From the IMG/VR virus record IMGVR_UViG_3300006201_000014, positions 6,784-70,783 of that record: DNA of 64,000 nucleotides; one strand, written 5' to 3'. This document shows, piece after piece, positions 5,978-14,486 of this stretch. A program made the position numbers and the translations under genes. The DNA comes from a virus. Lineage: Duplodnaviria; Caudoviricetes. Each line of letters starts with the position of its first letter. Position 1 is the first letter of the stretch. The notes under the pieces were generated by a model. The model did not search any database, had not been told where the DNA came from, and worked only from the letters and a program-made list of their open reading frames with translations.

Positions 5978-7168
5978 ATGGGTAAAGATTTAAAAGGAAA
6001 GGAGTTAGGTGTTGGCATAAGTCAACGGAAAGATAAGGTATATCAAGCAAGATATTCCGACAGATGGGGGAAAAGAAAAACAATTTACAATAAAAATTTA
6101 AGGGAGTTGCGAAAGCAGCTTGCAAAAGCTATTTCTAGTAATGAGAATCTTTCAAGTATAAAAGAGGAAATCACACTTGATAAATGGTTTGCCAGATGGA
6201 TGGAGATTTATAAAGAAAAGAGTATAAGACCTAATACCAAGAGGGAGTATACCCACATATATAATAAAAATATATCACCTTATATAGGTGAAAGGCGCAT
6301 CAATTCTTTGATGAAATCAGATATCCAGATGCTTATTGACAGGGCAAGCGATAATAATTATGCTTATGAGCGGCAAAGTAAGATCAAGATCATTCTCAAA
6401 GATATGCTCCAGAGGGCGGTCGAGGACAATCTTATTATAAATAATCCTGTGAGTGGCATTAAATTAAGGGCAGATAAAGAAATTAAGGCAAAATCTTTGA
6501 CGTTGGATGAACAGAATACATTTTTCGAATACTGCCAGAACACGTTTTATGACAATCTTTTCAATGTAGCTGTAAATACAGGACTGCGCCCTGGAGAACT
6601 TTTTGCTTTGCAGTTAGGCGATATTGACTTTGATTACGGGTTTATTGACGTGAATAAAACTCTTGTCTACCAGAAATATCTGACAGATGAGAGGAAAGAG
6701 TTCCATGTCGAACCGCCGAAAACAAAACAGAGTTACAGGAAAGTCCCGATCAACAGTGTTTGTAGGGAATATTTGCAAAGGCAGATAGAATTAAAGAGAG
6801 TCGTTTCCCAAAAAAGACCAAAGCAACAAAATGAATATCTGTTTGTGACAAAGTTTAACACGCCGCTTAACTCTGTCATATACTCAGACGCGATAAAGGC
6901 GGTTATAAGACAGATAAACCTTATGAAACCATTTGATGACCAATTTGAGGTGTTCAGTGGTCATGCATTTCGCCACACATTTGCTACAAGGTGTTTTGAA
7001 AATGGGGTGGATGCAAAAGTGGTACAGAGTTACCTCGGACACGCAAGCCTCAAGATGACAATGGATTTGTACACGCATGTCACGAATGAAAAATCCATGA
7101 TGGACATTGAAAAAATTGTACCGGAAAGTAAAAGTAAGATTGTGGATATCAGGCGCAAGATGGCTTAA
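5978..7168 (+). CDS. int: Tyrosine integrase with an N-terminal arm-binding domain
   Basis: TGLRPGE, HAFRHTFAT, LGHAS...TMDLY catalytic motifs. Confidence 0.95.
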   Translation: MGKDLKGKELGVGISQRKDKVYQARYSDRWGKRKTIYNKNLRELRKQLAKAISSNENLSSIKEEITLDKWFARWMEIYKEKSIRPNTKREYTHIYNKNISPYIGERRINSLMKSDIQMLIDRASDNNYAYERQSKIKIILKDMLQRAVEDNLIINNPVSGIKLRADKEIKAKSLTLDEQNTFFEYCQNTFYDNLFNVAVNTGLRPGELFALQLGDIDFDYGFIDVNKTLVYQKYLTDERKEFHVEPPKTKQSYRKVPINSVCREYLQRQIELKRVVSQKRPKQQNEYLFVTKFNTPLNSVIYSDAIKAVIRQINLMKPFDDQFEVFSGHAFRHTFATRCFENGVDAKVVQSYLGHASLKMTMDLYTHVTNEKSMMDIEKIVPESKSKIVDIRRKMA

Positions 7169-7434
7169 ATGGTGTAGTGATGGTGTAGTAATGGTGTAAA
7201 ACCCGAAATAAAATGCAGTAAAATCAATGGTTTCGAGGCATTTTGTGTTATAATTAATAAACTTTTTATGTATATCAGGTGACTCCGTACAAATGGTGTT
7301 AAAAGCTTGAAAATGCTAGGTTTTATGCGTGTTTGTGGTTTTTGAAAAACGATGTATTTCCATGTAAATCTATGCTATTTTATACCATAATGGTGTAGTA
7401 AATGGTGTAGTAAAATCTTTAAAAATGGTGTAGT
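7169..7434. repeat. attP-like site: two clusters of ATGGTGTAGT arm repeats flanking a central core
   Basis: Copies at 7169, 7180, 7191 (partial) and at 7390, 7402, 7425; immediately 3' of int. Confidence 0.75.
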
Positions 7435-7567
7435 AACTTAAAACAAGAAAAGAGCCTAATATATAGCAATCAAAAAGGTAATCAGATATATGTTCGATTA
7501 AAAACGTAAGAAAGGAGAGTATCTTGCACGTATGATGTTAGTACATGTAAAAGTAGATCTAGTTGAC

Positions 7568-7581
7568 TAAATGGCGATTTA
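7568..7581 (+). other. Inversion crossover site A (TAAATGGCGATTTA)
   Basis: TAAAT/ATTTA arms around a GGCG spacer; the same site recurs at 8849, 12767 and 13944; encodes NGDL. Confidence 0.85.
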
Positions 7582-8241
7582 CAGACTGCTTATCTACTAC
7601 AGGGCGGTACGCTGATTCCCGCAGGGGCCGATCTGAAATCAGACGCTTATAAAGTGCCGGGGAATTATTACTGCAATACTAATGCCGTTACAAATACATT
7701 AATTAATTGCCCTGCATATCAAGCGTTTACTTTAAAGGTAGAGTTGGCAAGTGGAAATGGATATCCCAGACAAACATTTAGAGAACATTCTTCGCAGAAA
7801 ATTGTTACTCGCACATTCAATCCGTATGATAATTCATGGACAGATATTGTCTCCTATGTCCGAAGTTCCGATTTATCCGTCTCTTATGTCGACCTAATTA
7901 ATAAACTAGACATGAATTTTTTTGATGCCGATCCTGGAAATCTGTATGCAAGTATTTATAAATATGGAAGAATTATTATGCTGTCGATTTCTGGTTACAC
8001 AAAAAATCTATCTGGAATGGATTATATAATTCCTGTTGGCGGGATTCCTGGTGAATACAGGCCATATGTCAACATGACATTTGAATCCCATGGAAGAAGT
8101 AATCCTCAATGGATTGACGCCTCAAATTACCCAATTGCGGTCAGGCCTTTAACTGATGGAAGTGTTGTGCTTTCTACTGGAACAAATAAAAATGACATAA
8201 GGTATATAAACATAGGATGTACATACTTTTCCCGAAATTAA
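7570..8241 (+). CDS. Silent tail-fibre C-terminal cassette A
   Basis: Begins NGDL right after an in-frame TGA; first ~95 aa are paralogous to the expressed cassette (GADLKSD.Y..PGNYYC...YPRQ.F). Confidence 0.85.
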   Translation, partial: NGDLQTAYLLQGGTLIPAGADLKSDAYKVPGNYYCNTNAVTNTLINCPAYQAFTLKVELASGNGYPRQTFREHSSQKIVTRTFNPYDNSWTDIVSYVRSSDLSVSYVDLINKLDMNFFDADPGNLYASIYKYGRIIMLSISGYTKNLSGMDYIIPVGGIPGEYRPYVNMTFESHGRSNPQWIDASNYPIAVRPLTDGSVVLSTGTNKNDIRYINIGCTYFSRN

Positions 8242-8260
8242 TCGACGATAGGTATTCTGG

Positions 8261-8857
8261 TCATTGCGGATTGATAGCATTAACCGTTACTTCGCCCCAT
8301 TTTAACGCACCGTCCATAAAACTGCCAGTTGTTATTTGTACACCTTTGGAGCTATATTTTGTAATTTGAAATACTCCATAAGTGCCAAGGGCTTTGTATA
8401 TATATCCGCATGGACTACCGCCATTTATTGGGGGGAAATCCACAGATGTGCCAAAGCGGAAAATATTCATGTCCCCTATTTCCATGGAATTGAACAGGGA
8501 AGTTAATGCTGCCTCTAATTCAGATATGGATGCGAATTTTCCAATATGGGGGAGATGCTTTTTGGAATTATTAATCAAATCGGGTTCAGTAACTATCTTC
8601 CCAACAAGAGTTACATTCCCTCCGGATATTTTATATAATGCTGGGGAGCCCGCTTCCTGCAATATAAAATTCCCATAGGCATTGTTTACTTTGTACCCAA
8701 AGCCACCATGTGTAATATCTGAAGAAGAATATTTGCGACGGATGGTAAACGAAAATGCCCGCATTAATGGCAATGATTGGTATTTTGAAATAAATACGTC
8801 CCATCCATTTTCTGTGTTATCCTCAATGTAAAAATTGTTATAGTCCTGTAAATCGCC
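8261..8857 (-). CDS. Silent tail-fibre C-terminal cassette B
   Basis: Frame opens at GDL within site B; in-frame TAA just upstream; convergent with cassette A. Confidence 0.8.
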   Translation of the reverse strand, partial: GDLQDYNNFYIEDNTENGWDVFISKYQSLPLMRAFSFTIRRKYSSSDITHGGFGYKVNNAYGNFILQEAGSPALYKISGGNVTLVGKIVTEPDLINNSKKHLPHIGKFASISELEAALTSLFNSMEIGDMNIFRFGTSVDFPPINGGSPCGYIYKALGTYGVFQITKYSSKGVQITTGSFMDGALKWGEVTVNAINPQ

Positions 8858-8862
8858 ATATT
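8849..8862 (-). other. Inversion crossover site B (AATATGGCGATTTA, left arm degenerate)
   Basis: 12/14 match to the consensus site, on the opposite strand to site A. Confidence 0.75.
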
Positions 8863-8864
8863 AT

Positions 8865-9460
8865 TTCATTATCATGGGAGCGTCCGGCAGCGGAAAAACA
8901 TATCTGTCCAATGCGCTTGGCGTGGCGGCATGCAGGAATTACCTGACTGTCAGATATGTGCGGATCCCAGTTCTCCTGAACGAACTTGCTTTAGCCCGTG
9001 GAGAAGGCATATACCTGAAATTGATTAAAGCTTATCAGAAGGTAAGTTTGCTGATTATTGATGAGTTCCTTCTTACACTGCTCACGAATGAGAGCAGGCC
9101 AACGATCTGCTGGAGGTCATTGAGCCGAGGACAGGGCGCGGTTCCATCATCTTCTGTACCCAATTCGAGCCGGACGGCTGGAATGAACTGGGCAAGGTAT
9201 ATGATCCGGCAAGAGAGTGGATCAGTACCATAGATATCCTTTCAAATCTGGATATGCCATACTATGACAGCCTGGCGTACCAGGAGTACGTCCGGCTCTA
9301 TTATGATGGTGGCGACTCGATGTCCTTTAAGGGATTTATTGATTCCATGGTGAAGCTTGCAAAAGATATTAATGACGAACAGTACTAAGTTATCAATGAC
9401 CTCCTTATAATCGAAAGCACTCCCTTCCTGAAGAATCGCACCGGATTCCCGGAAGGGGTG
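8865..9460 (+). pseudogene. istB: IS21 IstB ATPase fragment (frameshifted, 5'-truncated), fused to unrelated sequence and followed by an IS-end-like tract
   Basis: GASGSGKTY Walker A and LLIIDE Walker B; frameshift after LLTNE; higher GC than flanks. Confidence 0.7.
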
Positions 9461-9466
9461 CACTAA

Positions 9467-9691
9467 TCAAGCGGTATATTCTCTAAAGAATATGCTGGAG
9501 TAATTCTTATCTTCCGTAGAGAGTACATATATGTTTTTTACTGATATAATTTCATCATCATCTCCCTTAAATTTGAAGGAAATTGGATTCGGTTCATTTT
9601 TGTACGAAAACCAAGACAGACACGCTATATTTCTTCTTATCCCTCTAATATCACCTTTTTTAAACTCGTTATAAGACGCATTAAAAGCCAT
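9467..9691 (-). pseudogene. Truncated hypothetical gene, probably non-phage
   Basis: ORF track 74 aa; ends at the IS-like tract; sits among gene fragments. Confidence 0.4.
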
Positions 9692-10039
9692 TCATAACAC
9701 CTTCTATTATTTTATCATTCCTTACATGAAAATGAGGACACGCGCATTCTGGCGGCTTACACGGCTATATTATGAGCATAACAACTGTAAAATTTTTCTT
9801 TTGTTTAAAAAATCCATGAACAAGATTGTGTAGCCCTCAAGTTTCTCTTCGTCAGTTTGCATTGCTCAATACCATATATCAAGTGCCATCTTTACGGTAA
9901 TCTCTATATTGTGATAATAATAGAGAGTGACACTTGTATGTGTTACAACATCTTCGATTAATAATTTGGCATCCTGGTTTTAAAAACAAACTTCATATAG
10001 ATTATTTTTTGTAATTGGCATATAAGCATCTTCCCTTTT

Positions 10040-10225
10040 TTAAGCAATTGTTCTCATCAAAGCCTGTACTTTCTCGACAATAGTTACATTATTAGCTATA
10101 ATTGGCTCCATAGTATCGTTTTCAGGCTGTAAACGGTAGAAACCATTTTCTTTATAAAATTTCTTGACGGTTACACCTTCTTCTTTGCTATCTTCTACAT
10201 AAACCACCACGATTTCACCATTATG
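10040..10225 (-). pseudogene. lexA: LexA C-terminal (S24) fragment
   Basis: HNGEIVV...TVKKFYKENG.YRLQPEN..MEPII; no HTH or catalytic-Ser region; starts directly at a terminator. Confidence 0.75.
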
Positions 10226-10256
10226 CACCACCTTACATTTTTGTGAGATGGTGCAT
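10222..10256 (-). terminator. Hairpin downstream of the 10281-11129 gene
   Basis: ATGCACCA (10222-10229) / TGGTGCAT (10249-10256). Confidence 0.55.
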
Positions 10257-10280
10257 ATTTTGCATTATTTTTTAGTGTTC

Positions 10281-11129
10281 TTATTCAGCATAATTGATGT
10301 TGATGGCAAGAACCGCATCCTTACTTGTAGCATCATAGATTGCCTGCTTGAAGGATTCCTGTTTGCGTCTGAGTGGGTAAACATAATCAATGATAGCAGT
10401 AAGTAACTGCCCAAATTCTTCAACAGTAAATTCACGGCAAGCCTTCTTGATATTATGCCATTCTAACTTCCAATCTGGGTCGGACTGAATCTTAAGATTA
10501 TAAGCATTCAAATCAGTCAGCATTTCAATCTGATCTTCTTGAGTTACACCATAATATTCTCCATCAGTCCATTCTAATGGATTTCTTTCAAGATATTTTG
10601 CCAGAGCTGTCTTGTTCTGTGCCTGCATATAATCCTGTAACTCTTCAAGAGTACAAGTATTAACATCTACGGTTGGGCGTACAATGGCTTCGAGTTCATC
10701 CATTTTCTGTTCTGCTAGAGAAACATAACCAAGAGATACAATTACAATATTAGTAGATGTATCAATAGTTTCTGTCACAATAGTAGTAGAAGGTGTGGAT
10801 GTTTCAGTTCCGTCTTCGGCGGTTTCAATGACAGATGTTGCAATCTCTTTATCTACCTCTAAAGGAATATTTTCAACGGCCTCAGTGATACTCACTACCT
10901 TGATATAATCTTTAAAAGTAGTTACAAACCTACCATTTGGAGTAGTCTTATAGATAATTTTGAAATTATCTTTTTGGGATGTATTGAAAATCTTTACCAA
11001 TTTAGCTTTTGTAATATCGGAGGACAGGAACTTTAAAGTGAGAACTCCCCCAGTTTCATTGGAATCAAAAGCCTTAAGAACAGTATTGTCAACTAAAGTT
11101 AAATTCATCTGATATTTGATTTCTTTCAT
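10281..11129 (-). CDS. Tail-fibre-associated protein with a DUF4376-like C-terminus
   Basis: C-terminal L..W...D..Y..T.EDQ..M....W.....CR.FT.EEF..L...I pattern; located within the tail-fibre locus. Confidence 0.6.
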   Translation of the reverse strand: MKEIKYQMNLTLVDNTVLKAFDSNETGGVLTLKFLSSDITKAKLVKIFNTSQKDNFKIIYKTTPNGRFVTTFKDYIKVVSITEAVENIPLEVDKEIATSVIETAEDGTETSTPSTTIVTETIDTSTNIVIVSLGYVSLAEQKMDELEAIVRPTVDVNTCTLEELQDYMQAQNKTALAKYLERNPLEWTDGEYYGVTQEDQIEMLTDLNAYNLKIQSDPDWKLEWHNIKKACREFTVEEFGQLLTAIIDYVYPLRRKQESFKQAIYDATSKDAVLAININYAE

Positions 11130-11190
11130 GTTAAATCTCCTTTAAAAAAAATAAACGTCAATCTTTTCTTTCGAAAAAAGAAGAAAGATA

Positions 11191-11246
11191 TTGACGCAAA
11201 GATTAAGTGTGTGCTATAATGCGCTTAGAAAATAGAACATATGTTC
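11191..11246 (+). promoter_or_regulatory. Sigma-A promoter of the invertase with a LexA (Cheo) box just downstream
   Basis: TTGACG (11191) - 18 nt - TGnTATAAT (11212-11220); GAACATATGTTC (11235-11246). Confidence 0.75.
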
Positions 11247-11404
11247 GATTAAAAGGGCATAAAAATAGAGAAGATAAGTCCTGTCTCGCAAACTTTTCTT
11301 ACCTTCTCTACGGCACATGCGGTGAACCACATGATAGTCATATTCTATCACGGGGCTTGCCACTTTGCAAACCCATTTTTTAGAAATTGAAAGGATGATA
11401 GAAT

Positions 11405-12427
11405 ATGATGAAAACCGTTAATATTGATAATGTTATAAGAACTATTATGGACAGTATAACAGCAAATCTTGGTGAACAGTTTACCTTATCTGATTTAAAG
11501 CAAATCTTATATATGACCTTATCCAAATATAATATTAGTGAAGAGTGTACGGCTTTGTCCGTTGATATAGATTGTACAGAGCAGTATGTCCAAGATTATT
11601 TACTCAATATGAAATTAAATGGTTGCACTGAAAAAAGCATTAATGCTTATAGGAACGATATTAAAAATATGCTTATTTTTACAGATAAACCTGTTACAGA
11701 AATTACATACCATGATTTAAGGAATTGGTTAGGGTATGGAAAAATAGTAAGAAAGTGGAAAGATCGCACATATAATACTAAATTGGTAGAAATGCGTGGA
11801 TTTTTTTCGTGGTTATACGAAGAAGATTTACTCCCAAACAATCCTGCTAAAAAATTGAAGGAAACCAAAGTAGAACATCGAATTGGTTTAACCCTTCAAC
11901 CAGAAGAAAGAGAAGAAATCCGATGCCAGTGTAAAAACGAACGAGAACTCGCTATTTGTGATTTTTTATACAGTAGTGGGGTCAGGATTTCGGAATTATG
12001 TTCTTTAAATATTACAGATATTAGTTTTACAAAAAAATCTGCTATTGTGTATGGCAAAGGCAGAAAAGAGCGTGAAATATATTTTAATGCTCAAACTAAA
12101 GTTCATCTTATTAGGTATTTAAAAGAACGAACCGATGATAATCCAGCGTTGTTTGTGAGCGAAAGAAAACCGTATAATCGAGTCACATCTGGATCTATTC
12201 GAACATTACTGGGGAAAATTAAGAACCGAAATGATGCTACAAAGGGACTAAAATTAACGCCTCATGTTTTTAGACGAACAGTAGGAACTGACATGATAAA
12301 TAAGGGCGCACCGATTGAATTAGTAGCCGAGAAACTCGGACATAAAAATATTAGCACCACGAAGGACTGTTATTGTTCCATTGCGAGAGAAACGGTAAGA
12401 CAAGCGAATGATAAATTCGTGTCCTAA
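11405..12427 (+). CDS. XerD-like tyrosine recombinase (putative tail-fibre invertase)
   Basis: SGVRISE, HVFRRT, LGH...Y motifs; no arm-binding domain; lies between the two cassette pairs. Confidence 0.88.
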   Translation: MMKTVNIDNVIRTIMDSITANLGEQFTLSDLKQILYMTLSKYNISEECTALSVDIDCTEQYVQDYLLNMKLNGCTEKSINAYRNDIKNMLIFTDKPVTEITYHDLRNWLGYGKIVRKWKDRTYNTKLVEMRGFFSWLYEEDLLPNNPAKKLKETKVEHRIGLTLQPEEREEIRCQCKNERELAICDFLYSSGVRISELCSLNITDISFTKKSAIVYGKGRKEREIYFNAQTKVHLIRYLKERTDDNPALFVSERKPYNRVTSGSIRTLLGKIKNRNDATKGLKLTPHVFRRTVGTDMINKGAPIELVAEKLGHKNISTTKDCYCSIARETVRQANDKFVS

Positions 12428-12598
12428 ATTTAATTGAATTTTGCTAACATTATATAATATATTGTAACAGGCTTATCTCATCTTATATCACTGCATATTG
12501 CAATGGTTTTGCTCCACAAGACGGCCGCCGCAAAACGGAATTGTGTCCGATGAGGGTCACAAAATGCAATCACTTCTTTAAAATTATAAGATTTGTTA

Positions 12599-12625
12599 AA
12601 TAGACCGCCATATAGACGGTCTATT
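12599..12625. terminator. Inverted repeat downstream of the recombinase
   Basis: AATAGACCG / CGGTCTATT 9-bp stem. Confidence 0.55.
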
Positions 12626-12766
12626 AGTCGTGTCCTTTACCAAAAATATAAAAATAAATGAAAACTCAAATGAGAGAATTAACACTATATTTTTGAGAAT
12701 TCTCCGATTCCTCATGTCTTTGTATCACGGACAGCGGTTCCCAATATTTAGTTCTAACATAGTGAG

Positions 12767-12780
12767 TAAATGGCGATTTA
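12767..12780 (+). other. Inversion crossover site C (TAAATGGCGATTTA)
   Basis: Identical to site A. Confidence 0.85.
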
Positions 12781-13299
12781 AACCATTCTTTGTCATCGGA
12801 TATTCTTGCATACGCACTTTCGGATAACTGCAAGATCGGGTTTTCTTCTGGCGCATTTACCGGTTCTGATTATACGGGTACACTTCCGGACATCAACCTA
12901 AAATACGGCACATGGGAAATCAATAAGCGAAGTGCAAATACTATAACGGTTAAAGCATTTTCGCCGTATAAATCTACCATGTGGGTTAATTCCTATGTTA
13001 ATACCGCAGGATGGGCCGGATGGACATATTGTGCTAATGGAAACGATTTATTTTTGGTTCCAGAAGGAAATTTTTTAGATTTTATTGATTCAAAAAGACA
13101 GGGATTCTATGGCGGAATCTATACCAACAAAACCACTAATGTTCCCGGAACGTCCCGATATGGAACGTTTTATGCCATCGTAATGGACGAACCATCTGCC
13201 ACTGTACTTGCTTTTTCCCTTGACAAAAATGCATACATTAATTTCCGAACCGAGGGAATTTGGAATGGGTGGAAAAAAATTACTGTTGAGACAGCCTAA
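12769..13299 (+). CDS. Silent tail-fibre C-terminal cassette C
   Basis: NGDLNHSLSSD... is in frame with the ORF-track ORF at 12790; in-frame TGA at 12763. Confidence 0.82.
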   Translation, partial: NGDLNHSLSSDILAYALSDNCKIGFSSGAFTGSDYTGTLPDINLKYGTWEINKRSANTITVKAFSPYKSTMWVNSYVNTAGWAGWTYCANGNDLFLVPEGNFLDFIDSKRQGFYGGIYTNKTTNVPGTSRYGTFYAIVMDEPSATVLAFSLDKNAYINFRTEGIWNGWKKITVETA

Positions 13300-14486
13300 T
13301 CAAAATCAACAAGCGCAACAAACGTAGTTCGCACCCATCCGGTTGCTGGATTTTGAGATATTTCATTATAAATTCTCATTACGCCCGCCCCTGCAAAATC
13401 CATTAAAACGGTTCCGGAGCCATTTTGGGCGGGGATATCAAAAAAAGCACTATTGTAAACGCGCGAAATACCATTTATTCTCCCGATTTCCACAAAGGTT
13501 CTATTGCCCTCAAGGGGAGCACCGTCAATAGTCAAATTAAAGCTAACAAGAATCAAATTGGGGCCAATTTTAAATGCATTGATTCGATTAAATGACGTCT
13601 CTGAAACATGCGGGTTTTCTGTTCTGGTTTTTGTCATGACAACCGCCGCAAGATCACTATTCATAACATAAGATACATTATTAAACCAAGTCCCCTGCGA
13701 CTGATTATAAACTCTTGATATAATTTTCCCTGTATTATATTCAGCAAAAATCTGCCTTGGATATGAATTTCCGGTAGCTCTTTCAACTTTTAATATGAAT
13801 GCATTGGAAGCCGGAGAATTAATCAAAGTTGAAGCTATATCATTAGTTGGGCAATAATAATTCCCTGGTTTTCTATAGGTATCAGATTTCAAATCTGCGC
13901 CAGATGGGATTGCTATACCACCTTGTAGCGCATAGTAGTTAGGCAAATCGCCATTTAGCTTTTCTATTTTGCTATTAAGGTCATGTCCTTGTAGGGCGGA
14001 CAATGCCAATAAAGCGTTAGTACTATCAAGTCCATTATAAATATCAGCGGTAGATAATTTTCCCGAATTCAATAATTGGATAGCGTTAGTAATATCTGCC
14101 GCAGCCTGATCTACACCACCAGATTCTACGGTGATATTAGAAAATGCGCCAATCATAGTTTTTATACCATTGATTTGTATATTCAAATATTCAAATTTCT
14201 TTTTTGTAACAGCCCAAAGTAGATCTAGGGTTGATCCTTCTTCTAAAGCTGGATTTTCGGCAGTAACTTCTGCAAAGCTAGAAATAATTTTCTTTTTAAT
14301 ATCAGAAACGACTGCATAATCCAGTTCATTCCAGTGTTTTACGCCATCACCAAATTTAATATTGACCTCACCAACGCCAATGGTATTTTCCCATTCAACG
14401 CCGATTTCACGTTCCAGTAGAACTGGATTGGCTGCTTCCCATTTGGATTTTGTGTCACCACGAGGTCTAATTTTGCTAAATGCCAT
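13296..14486 (-). CDS. Tail fibre / receptor-binding protein: constant N-terminus (177 aa) plus currently expressed cassette D
   Basis: N-terminal NPVLLEREIGVE...KFGDG...WNELDY (Mtd-N/hyaluronidase-N-like); crossover site within LNGDL. Confidence 0.85.
   Translation of the reverse strand: MAFSKIRPRGDTKSKWEAANPVLLEREIGVEWENTIGVGEVNIKFGDGVKHWNELDYAVVSDIKKKIISSFAEVTAENPALEEGSTLDLLWAVTKKKFEYLNIQINGIKTMIGAFSNITVESGGVDQAAADITNAIQLLNSGKLSTADIYNGLDSTNALLALSALQGHDLNSKIEKLNGDLPNYYALQGGIAIPSGADLKSDTYRKPGNYYCPTNDIASTLINSPASNAFILKVERATGNSYPRQIFAEYNTGKIISRVYNQSQGTWFNNVSYVMNSDLAAVVMTKTRTENPHVSETSFNRINAFKIGPNLILVSFNLTIDGAPLEGNRTFVEIGRINGISRVYNSAFFDIPAQNGSGTVLMDFAGAGVMRIYNEISQNPATGWVRTTFVALVDFD
13944..13957 (-). 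other. Inversion crossover site D inside the expressed gene (TAAATGGCGATTTG)
   Basis: 13/14 match to sites A and C, opposite orientation. Confidence 0.85.

Follow-up and report, generated by a model that had tools for sequence, protein, structure and literature searches.

A tail-fibre locus with four recombination sites, very probably an active shufflon, in a temperate phage of mouse-gut Lachnospiraceae

An overview of the locus described here, positions 7568–14486 of a 64,000-nucleotide stretch of DNA (the window; positions 6,784 to 70,783 of the IMG/VR virus record IMGVR_UViG_3300006201_000014), is given in the lines below. The record derives from a temperate, siphovirus-type phage of mouse-gut Lachnospiraceae, and the locus contains an expressed tail-fibre gene, silent cassettes, four copies of a short site and a recombinase gene. 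We consider it very probable that these form an active shufflon by which the last tail-fibre protein receives one or another C-terminal, receptor-binding end, with the 340-amino acid (aa) recombinase as its putative enzyme. Each site is named by the DNA on its two sides, a head (the left flank, L; the left or right end of the central segment x, xl and xr; or the constant part of the fibre gene, const) and a tail (one of the cassettes A–D).

7568–7581, plus strand: site sA (head L, tail A), TAAAT-GGCG-ATTTA, an exact match; core at 7571–7580
7570–8241, plus strand: silent cassette A, 223 aa and a stop by translation, with no start codon, beginning NGDL
8261–8860, minus strand: silent cassette B, by translation 199 aa from YGDL, convergent with A
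8849–8862, minus strand: site sB (head xl, tail B), AATAT-GGCG-ATTTA, with a degenerate head arm; core at 8850–8859
8863–12766: segment x, 3.9 kb, between the cassette pairs, annotated with Pfam and PHROG
11405–12427, plus strand: 340-aa Xer-like tyrosine recombinase, the proposed shufflon enzyme (PF00589, E 2e-30, and SAM-like N-terminal domains)
12767–12780, plus strand: site sC (head xr, tail C), TAAAT-GGCG-ATTTA; core at 12770–12779
12769–13299, plus strand: silent cassette C, 176 aa and a stop by translation, beginning NGDL behind a TGA
13296–14486, minus strand: expressed tail-fibre/receptor-binding gene, 396 aa (constant part and cassette D)
13944–13957, minus strand: site sD (head const1, tail D), TAAAT-GGCG-ATTTG, within the codons for L-N-G-D-L; core at 13945–13954

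The sites are built of two 5-bp inverted arms, TAAAT and ATTTA, around the asymmetric centre GGCG, and the four copies alternate in orientation along the locus. Within the window the 14-bp sequence TAAATGGCGATTTA occurs exactly at 7568(+) and 12767(+), with one mismatch at 13944(-) and with two mismatches at 8849(-). The 10-bp core ATGGCGATTT common to the four is found nowhere else in the window; shuffled sequences contain it 0.15 times on average, and none of 100 shuffles reached four copies.

The expressed gene reads KIEKLNGDLPNYY across site sD, which separates its constant part, an anchor with a helical shaft (residues 1–177; 13956–14486), from cassette D (219 aa; 13296–13955). The cassettes form two tail-to-tail pairs, A(+)/B(-) at 7570–8860 and C(+)/D(-) at 12769–13955, and cassette C is convergent with the fibre gene such that the stops of both overlap. 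Cassettes A, B and C are start-less, each lies directly behind a stop codon, and each is open to its own stop; they begin with (L/V)NGDL or YGDL. The frame enters A as TGA-CTA-AAT-GGC-GAT-TTA (224 codons from N, stop included), B as TAA-TAT-GGC-GAT-TTA (199 codons from G) and C as TGA-GTA-AAT-GGC-GAT-TTA (177 codons from N). An earlier reading of this DNA from its letters alone (the sequence-only reading) had proposed the same four 14-bp sites and the same cassette frames and lengths (A 224, B 199 and C 177 codons); the search confirms the positions of the sites, and translation bears out the frames. Cassettes A and D are homologous past the site (42% identity), in A over the first part of the cassette, and cassette C has a weak XkdV_N match.

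A tail module on the minus strand, with the tape measure, Dit, a 1028-aa Tal-like gene, a 132-aa gene and a 330-aa gene, ends with the fibre gene, whose product matches tail-fibre PHROGs at its N-terminus. A structure model of the whole fibre is poor (mean predicted local distance difference test score, pLDDT, of 58), with its usable part restricted to the last domain; it has a small N-terminal domain, long helices that stop at the LNGDL site, and then two beta-rich domains. Structure matches of the helical region were disregarded. Residues 280–394 of the model (pLDDT ~80) match the receptor-binding protein (RBP) head of the lactococcal phage bIL170 (2fsd_B; Z 9.9, root-mean-square deviation 2.8, 106 of 110 residues) and those of TP901-1, PSA and p2 (Z 6.4–7.1), and residues 189–279 match the phi11 RBP (Z 7.9). 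The modelled last domain has the C-terminal beta-sandwich fold of lactococcal-type RBP heads, and on the strength of these matches to the terminal domains of the model the cassettes are predicted to encode the receptor-binding end of the fibre. We note that D carries a second motif, MNSDL, near residue 270 (window ~13650–13690), and that hybrid fibres of other phages (P0004, P0008 and P0011) unite, at this second N-S-D-L motif, an inner half and an outer half that come from different cassettes; the cassettes are therefore two-module units. The DNA of the N-S-D-L motif (AATAGTGATTTA) is in some lineages the crossover site itself.

Public assemblies were queried with the exact recombinase protein, the neighbouring 330-aa protein, the cassette open reading frames (ORFs) and the fused fibres, and returned dozens of mouse-gut contigs that are ~100% identical to the window and differently arranged. 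Alignment of these contigs to the window places every breakpoint inside the 10-bp core, and the isomers do not differ at many positions around the junctions. All four sites serve as breakpoints: sA in L028–L031, L033, L038–L042 and others, sB in many contigs, with its head xl found joined to B, C and D, sC with its head xr joined to A, B and C, and sD with its head const1 joined to A, B and D. The sites are thus crossover points, as had been supposed from the sequence, in that contigs from other samples have been rejoined exactly in the core. Written from left to right, the window itself, and partly L032, has the state A-B, x, C-D-const; the state C-D, x, A-B-const is found in L028, L029, L031, L038, L040, L041, L062, L064 and L065, with its left end also present in L070 (as L, C-D, x); and L030 and L077 have the state C-D, x, B-A-const.

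Fusions of the constant part to A, B and D exist in nature. The const+B fibre (376 aa) is intact in 10 contigs by exact protein and in 14 by junction, the const+A fibre (400 aa) is intact in three contigs from three samples (L030, L077 and L079), and const+D is found in this record only. An exact-protein look-up of the window's own 396-aa fibre, in data from which records near the window may be missing, gave no match. The A- and B-expressing forms each occur with both of two variants of x (100% and ~94% identical to the window), and the A/B flip has therefore happened more than once. Classing each occurrence of the core by its head and tail gives 11 of the 16 possible junctions, including xl-C in L073, which corresponds to a flip of the C/D pair. 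Some contigs end exactly at cores (L036, equivalent to 8850–12780, at both ends, and L073 at one end), which is how an assembly graph behaves in a mixed population, and hint at several states per sample; a similar hint comes from L032, which starts with xr-A and ends with xr-C. In L035, D is joined to x-left and C to x-right. One state is predominant in the public data. The proposed four host-range variants in each phage population go beyond these data, in which most samples look dominated by one state.

Neither a megablast search of the locus against GenBank phages nor a search of JGI metagenome contigs and IMG/VR with the exact 32-nt constant-side head pattern gave a match. Differences in gene length (121/132, 327/330 and 275/282 aa) were considered as strain markers and rejected, the DNA there being identical and the lengths reflecting gene calling; the real marker is the ~94% x variant. 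An apparent loss of the recombinase gene in L038/L059 was likewise dismissed as a run of N in the scaffold.

The 340-aa protein scores 106 bits against PF00589 (cut-off 27.1) and is thus a member of the tyrosine recombinase superfamily. It consists of core-binding and catalytic domains only (i.e. it is armless), and alignment to XerD (1a0p) and a XerC-like protein (4a8e) shows the catalytic R, K, HxxR, H and Y residues to be intact (in GVRISE, GKGRKER, HVFRR, LGH and DCY). The NCBIfam equivalog cut-offs are not reached (XerA, 186 bits versus 220; XerC, 162 versus 335; XerD, 149 versus 330), and the enzyme is Xer-like in fold and not a Xer equivalog. It and the DUF4376-like gene both lie within the invertible span, where the sequence-only reading had placed them (11405–12427, PF00589 E 2e-30; 10281–11129, PHROG E 2e-7). 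No serine recombinase (PF00239) is matched in the whole 70.8-kb record by a search that was positive in 12 of 14 control genomes, and the only other tyrosine recombinase in the record is a 396-aa integrase.

Relatives of the recombinase in other phages are accompanied by related sites. In L022 (recombinase 59% identical) there are four perfect TAAATAGCAATTTA sites, and two cassette pairs flank the recombinase with a 272-aa fibre adjoining, while in L024 (57% identical) a pair of TAAATAGCAATTTA sites lies beside the recombinase, where the contig ends. L013 and L026 (63% and 67% identical) have AAATAGTGATTTA pairs. More distantly, L170 (32% identical) has four TAAATAGTGATTT sites, and the fibre next to them shares 58% identity with that of the window in its constant part; L174 (34% identical), a contractile-tail phage, has four sites ending in TAGTGATTTA. 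The L174 segment that carries its 333-aa recombinase (L174:9740-11305) has the opposite orientation in L175 and L176, and the breakpoints fall within the repeats ending in TAGTGATTTA, a flip of the recombinase segment that is never seen for the window's phage. Across these loci the site takes the form TAAAT-RGYR-ATTT(A/G) with flanks that are not conserved, and it reads N-x-x-L almost always, with one exception (N-S-D-F in L170). The centres fall into three classes, GGCG, AGCA and AGTG; matching centres, if required for strand exchange, would keep shufflons apart, and we note that L067 carries sites of two classes (GGCG and AGCA). The 340-aa enzyme is likely the catalyst of the shuffling, because its relatives are syntenic with the same family of sites, its catalytic residues are intact and the record has no serine recombinase. 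The same points favour the tyrosine recombinase named as driver in the sequence-only reading, a role that we infer.

In the mechanism that we propose, the recombinase would pair two sites and exchange strands within the ATGGCGATTT core, and the constant part would thereby be joined in frame to another promoter-less and start-less cassette. The pair adjoining the fibre gene would flip often and both pairs would be exchanged rarely, either by use of the degenerate site that lies beside an IstB gene fragment or by excision and re-insertion. The resulting fusions would be expected to alter host range. The scheme first suggested, in which D/A, D/C and A/B inversions bring in the other cassettes, is right in that const+A and const+B fusions exist, although these do not arise via simple D/A inversion; the recombinase segment keeps its orientation while the cassette pairs swap places.

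Several observations weigh against a shufflon run freely by this enzyme. The const+C fusion was never seen among the public contigs, nor were the junctions L-B, L-D, xl-A and xr-D, and cassette C used as a query for longer proteins returned solely the fibres of other phages. The state frequencies among these contigs are biased, since the searches may have lacked records near that of the window. If only inversions occur, 16 states can be reached through flips of single segments or of all three at once, and the passage from the window's state to the common one, with pairs exchanged and x unturned, takes four inversions via x-flipped intermediates. None of the 11 public contigs spanning both x and the fibre gene has x inverted relative to that gene, the orientation in the window being identical, and this is unexpected under free recombination of all inverted site pairs. 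The junction set of L035 (D-xl and xr-C) is unobtainable by inversions of single-copy DNA. As to the putative enzyme, with the record rated 45% complete a further recombinase could lie outside it. Sixteen recombinases that are 57–59% identical to it (L007–L012, L014–L021, L023 and L025) have no such sites nearby and constitute a well-supported derived clade in the tree; in L008 (7998-9023), the sole annotated neighbourhood of that clade, the gene has replication genes on one side and a late regulator/terminase module on the other. Enzymes of this clade are thus not specialised for shufflons as a group, and such close relatives may have another role. Similarly, the 32%-identical recombinases of Clostridium phage phiCp-D (L055, 21639-22616) and Terrisporobacter phage TPELB_ph1 (L056, 17645-18640), both annotated 'integrase', lie between the last tail gene and the holin with no evident cassettes; an inverted-repeat search near them gave AT-rich noise only, and TPELB_ph1 has a separate large integrase.

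Two accounts of the constant orientation of x can be given within the shufflon reading. Unequal flipping fits the data: events that use sB would be rare because its head arm is damaged (AATAT versus TAAAT), and in the common state the pair adjoining the fibre gene, the same pair that is seen flipping, has a perfect site at either end. Alternatively, the enzyme is not limited to inversion, and x together with C/D (~5.1 kb) excises as a circle and re-inserts at any compatible site. We regard this second account as doubtful, though it would explain several observations: excision and re-insertion via directly repeated sites would exchange the pairs in two steps with x unturned, L035 carries exactly the junction pair of an x + C/D circle, and the presence of the C/D module on several constant regions would be accounted for too. 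Duplication or mixed assemblies could also lie behind L035 and L032. If excision does occur, the cassettes would make up an integron-like mobile pool of receptor-binding ends shared among co-resident phages, and the three classes of centre (GGCG, AGCA and AGTG) would separate such pools.

Other explanations than a shufflon run by the 340-aa enzyme can be offered at three points. The driver could be another enzyme (a host recombinase, the 396-aa integrase, or one encoded in the unsequenced part), with the 340-aa protein employed elsewhere, e.g. in multimer resolution. The incompleteness of the record leaves room for this, as do the 57–59% identical relatives that have no such sites nearby, one of which was examined and adjoins terminase genes, and the 32%-identity relatives of phiCp-D and TPELB_ph1 that sit between tail and lysis genes; but at least five independent shufflon loci retain a relative within or next to their sites, down to 32% identity, and the shufflon-linked recombinases are the first branches after the outgroup in the tree. 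The integrase, moreover, has its own unrelated attachment (att) core and arm repeats, and with the serine class missing from the record we think it improbable that the enzyme is a different one.

The arrangements themselves could be read as fixed relics of homologous or illegitimate recombination that took place now and then between related phages with fibre modules in common, with no programmed switching. Modules are clearly exchanged among phages, recombinants within cassettes are seen (L067, P0004, P0008 and P0011), and one state dominates the public data. Against this, every breakpoint lies within one and the same 10-bp core, homologous recombination would require a longer stretch, and identity in the flanks is ~100%; the A/B flip is found on two backgrounds, the silent cassettes are start-less yet remain open for 177–224 codons, and the layout of site and recombinase recurs in distant phages, so that this explanation appears very improbable. 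The contigs might also have been misjoined at a short repeat, since all the data come from short-read assemblies and the junction sets of L032 and L035 are impossible in a single-copy genome. A repeat of 10–14 bp is, however, far below assembler k-mer sizes, the same junctions occur in assemblies from ENA, NCBI, Logan and JGI, which were built from different samples by various programs, and the fused genes are intact; assembly artefact is hardly credible as the source of the arrangements.

The closest known precedent of the locus is the Rin shufflon of Bifidobacterium breve and B. longum prophages, described as the earliest case of a tyrosine invertase that is encoded by a phage and acts on RBP cassettes (Mavrich et al. 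2018; PMC6109161), rather than Gin, Cin and Rci, which were cited as analogues in the sequence-only reading and are analogous in their switching. A Rin-type shufflon was later described in Eggerthella lenta prophages (PMC8778435), and a survey of programmed inversions found tail-fibre genes and tyrosine recombinases among the enriched annotations (PMC9881135). In common with Rin, the locus has an armless Xer-like phage tyrosine recombinase beside the RBP gene and separate from the phage integrase, a constant N-terminal part with start-less C-terminal cassettes each preceded in frame by a short repeat, and natural isomers with breakpoints in the repeats; TP901-1-like matches were reported for the Rin cassettes (PMC6109161), and a lactococcal-type RBP head fold is predicted here by the structure model. 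The two differ in host, here Firmicutes (Lachnospiraceae) and there Actinobacteria, and in site, the 14-bp dyad TAAAT-GGCG-ATTTA contrasting with the asymmetric 11-bp rix TTCCCTAACCC, which has no match with one or no mismatch in the window. The recombinase lies inside the shuffled span between tail-to-tail pairs, whereas Rin is at one end of a cassette row, and the cassettes are of 176–223 aa with two domains as opposed to 95–100 aa. A tblastn search with the recombinase against the phage collection, from which the prophages concerned are perhaps absent, gave no Bifidobacterium match at E <= 1e-20.

More remote likenesses are found with Gin of Mu, Cin of P1 and Min of p15B, where inversion of DNA gives a tail-fibre gene another C-terminal part, and with Min in particular, the six-site system of plasmid p15B, which has several sites and cassettes. 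These enzymes are serine invertases, of which this record has none, and their sites are unrelated; they use an enhancer and Fis. The R64 shufflon shares a tyrosine recombinase (Rci), several short sites in both orientations and the exchange of the C-terminal ends of one protein. Its repeats are the 19-bp sfx, one arm of which may be poorly conserved, as in sB. It differs in its target, the conjugative pilus adhesin pilV on a plasmid and not a tail fibre. A second difference is that Rci carries out inversions alone, and the arrangements at this locus hint that other events besides simple inversion may take place. Type I restriction hsdS shufflons are also run by tyrosine invertases, e.g. PsrA/CreX of Streptococcus pneumoniae (PMC9881135). 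They resemble this locus in their small Xer-like recombinase, in short inverted repeats within coding sequence and in having one expressed and several silent start-less copies, between which specificity domains are swapped, although the target is the DNA-specificity subunit of a host defence system and not a virion protein. To our knowledge the sites of hsdS shufflons are unrelated in sequence to the one described here.

A phage is limited in what it infects mainly by its host range, and the general principle of switching it in this way has been published since 2018 with Rin, such that the gain here is in breadth and detail and not in kind. Beyond prediction, the natural isomers show a gut Clostridia phage re-tipping its RBP by site-specific recombination. 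The TAAAT-RGYR-ATTT site family, located at the end of the fibre shaft, and the recombinase recur in sipho- and myovirus-type phages from mouse and human gut. Cassettes are also found on more than one fibre gene. Cassettes of two other types (P0009/P0011 and P0010) follow the window's constant part (97–100% identical) at LNGDL, one constant part in a sister lineage has at least seven different ends, and the C-D pair (window equivalents 12763–13957) occurs at 99–100% nucleotide identity on two other constant regions (L071 and L072). In L067:3978-5913 the constant region is a third one, and cassette C lies there beside a hybrid cassette bearing the outer domain of D; L067 is a P2/PBSX-like prophage with a contractile tail that occupies the same att site in the host and shares its left flank with the window's phage. 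The recurrence of the site family and of identical modules on different fibre genes point to a shared pool of tips. Among the practical consequences, contigs break at such loci and host prediction from one assembled fibre allele can mislead, and a 14-bp site with a 340-aa enzyme makes a compact candidate for swapping domains in frame.

Apart from the recombinase gene, segment x contains the following features:

8874–9233, plus strand: IstB fragment (Pfam/PHROG)
9467–9691, minus strand: 74-aa ORF
10040–10231, minus strand: S24/LexA-like C-terminal fragment (Pfam/PHROG)
10281–11129, minus strand: DUF4376-like tail protein (Pfam E 0.005, below the cut-off; PHROG tail fibre E 2e-7)
11192–11246, plus strand: putative recombinase promoter TTGACG-18-TGTGCTATAAT followed by the palindrome GAACATATGTTC, read from the sequence

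The palindrome GAACATATGTTC is a LexA/Cheo-box look-alike and the sole GAAC-N4-GTTC in the window; a coupling of switching to the SOS response through it is offered as a lead only, and no LexA-like box is present upstream of the recombinase in L022, L024 or L013. The S24/LexA-like fragment and the 74-aa ORF (window 8863–10231) have intact counterparts in L022:1366-2931, just outside the shufflon and in an orientation relative to the recombinase opposite to that in the window. Because these counterparts are intact and differently placed and oriented, the comparison suggests that an old rearrangement brought flanking DNA into x. We note that the IstB fragment abuts the damaged arm of sB. The second version of x, including the recombinase gene, is 92–97% identical to the window (equivalents ~10360–12780) and is carried by L040/L057, L041/L061, L062, L064–L066 and L077, in which the adjoining cassettes and constant part are 99.7–99.9% identical to the window. 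Since x has diverged while the adjoining cassettes are near-identical, the recombinase region has a history of its own.

Outside the shufflon, and to its left, lies the integration region:

5978–7289, plus strand: 396-aa Tn916-type integrase (5978–7168; PHROG integrase E 1e-73) with arm-type repeats and att core (~7263–7289)

The integrase has an arm-binding domain (a weak PF02920 match) and is accompanied by a Xis gene. The att core lies around TTTTTATGTATATCAGGTGAC, which is unrelated to the shufflon core, and on both sides of it (7167–7200 and 7388–7436) are ATGGTGTAGT(A/G)A repeats that look like arm-type integrase sites. In other samples the sequence breaks at 7263–7289, with the integrase side continuing into host SBF/MatE genes and the other side into host ligA-metA, which identifies the window's record as the excised (attP) form. 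Its host, an uncultured Lachnospiraceae of the mouse gut, has a LigA 99% identical to that of MGBC137839, a Lachnospiraceae metagenome-assembled genome that has the att site without the prophage.

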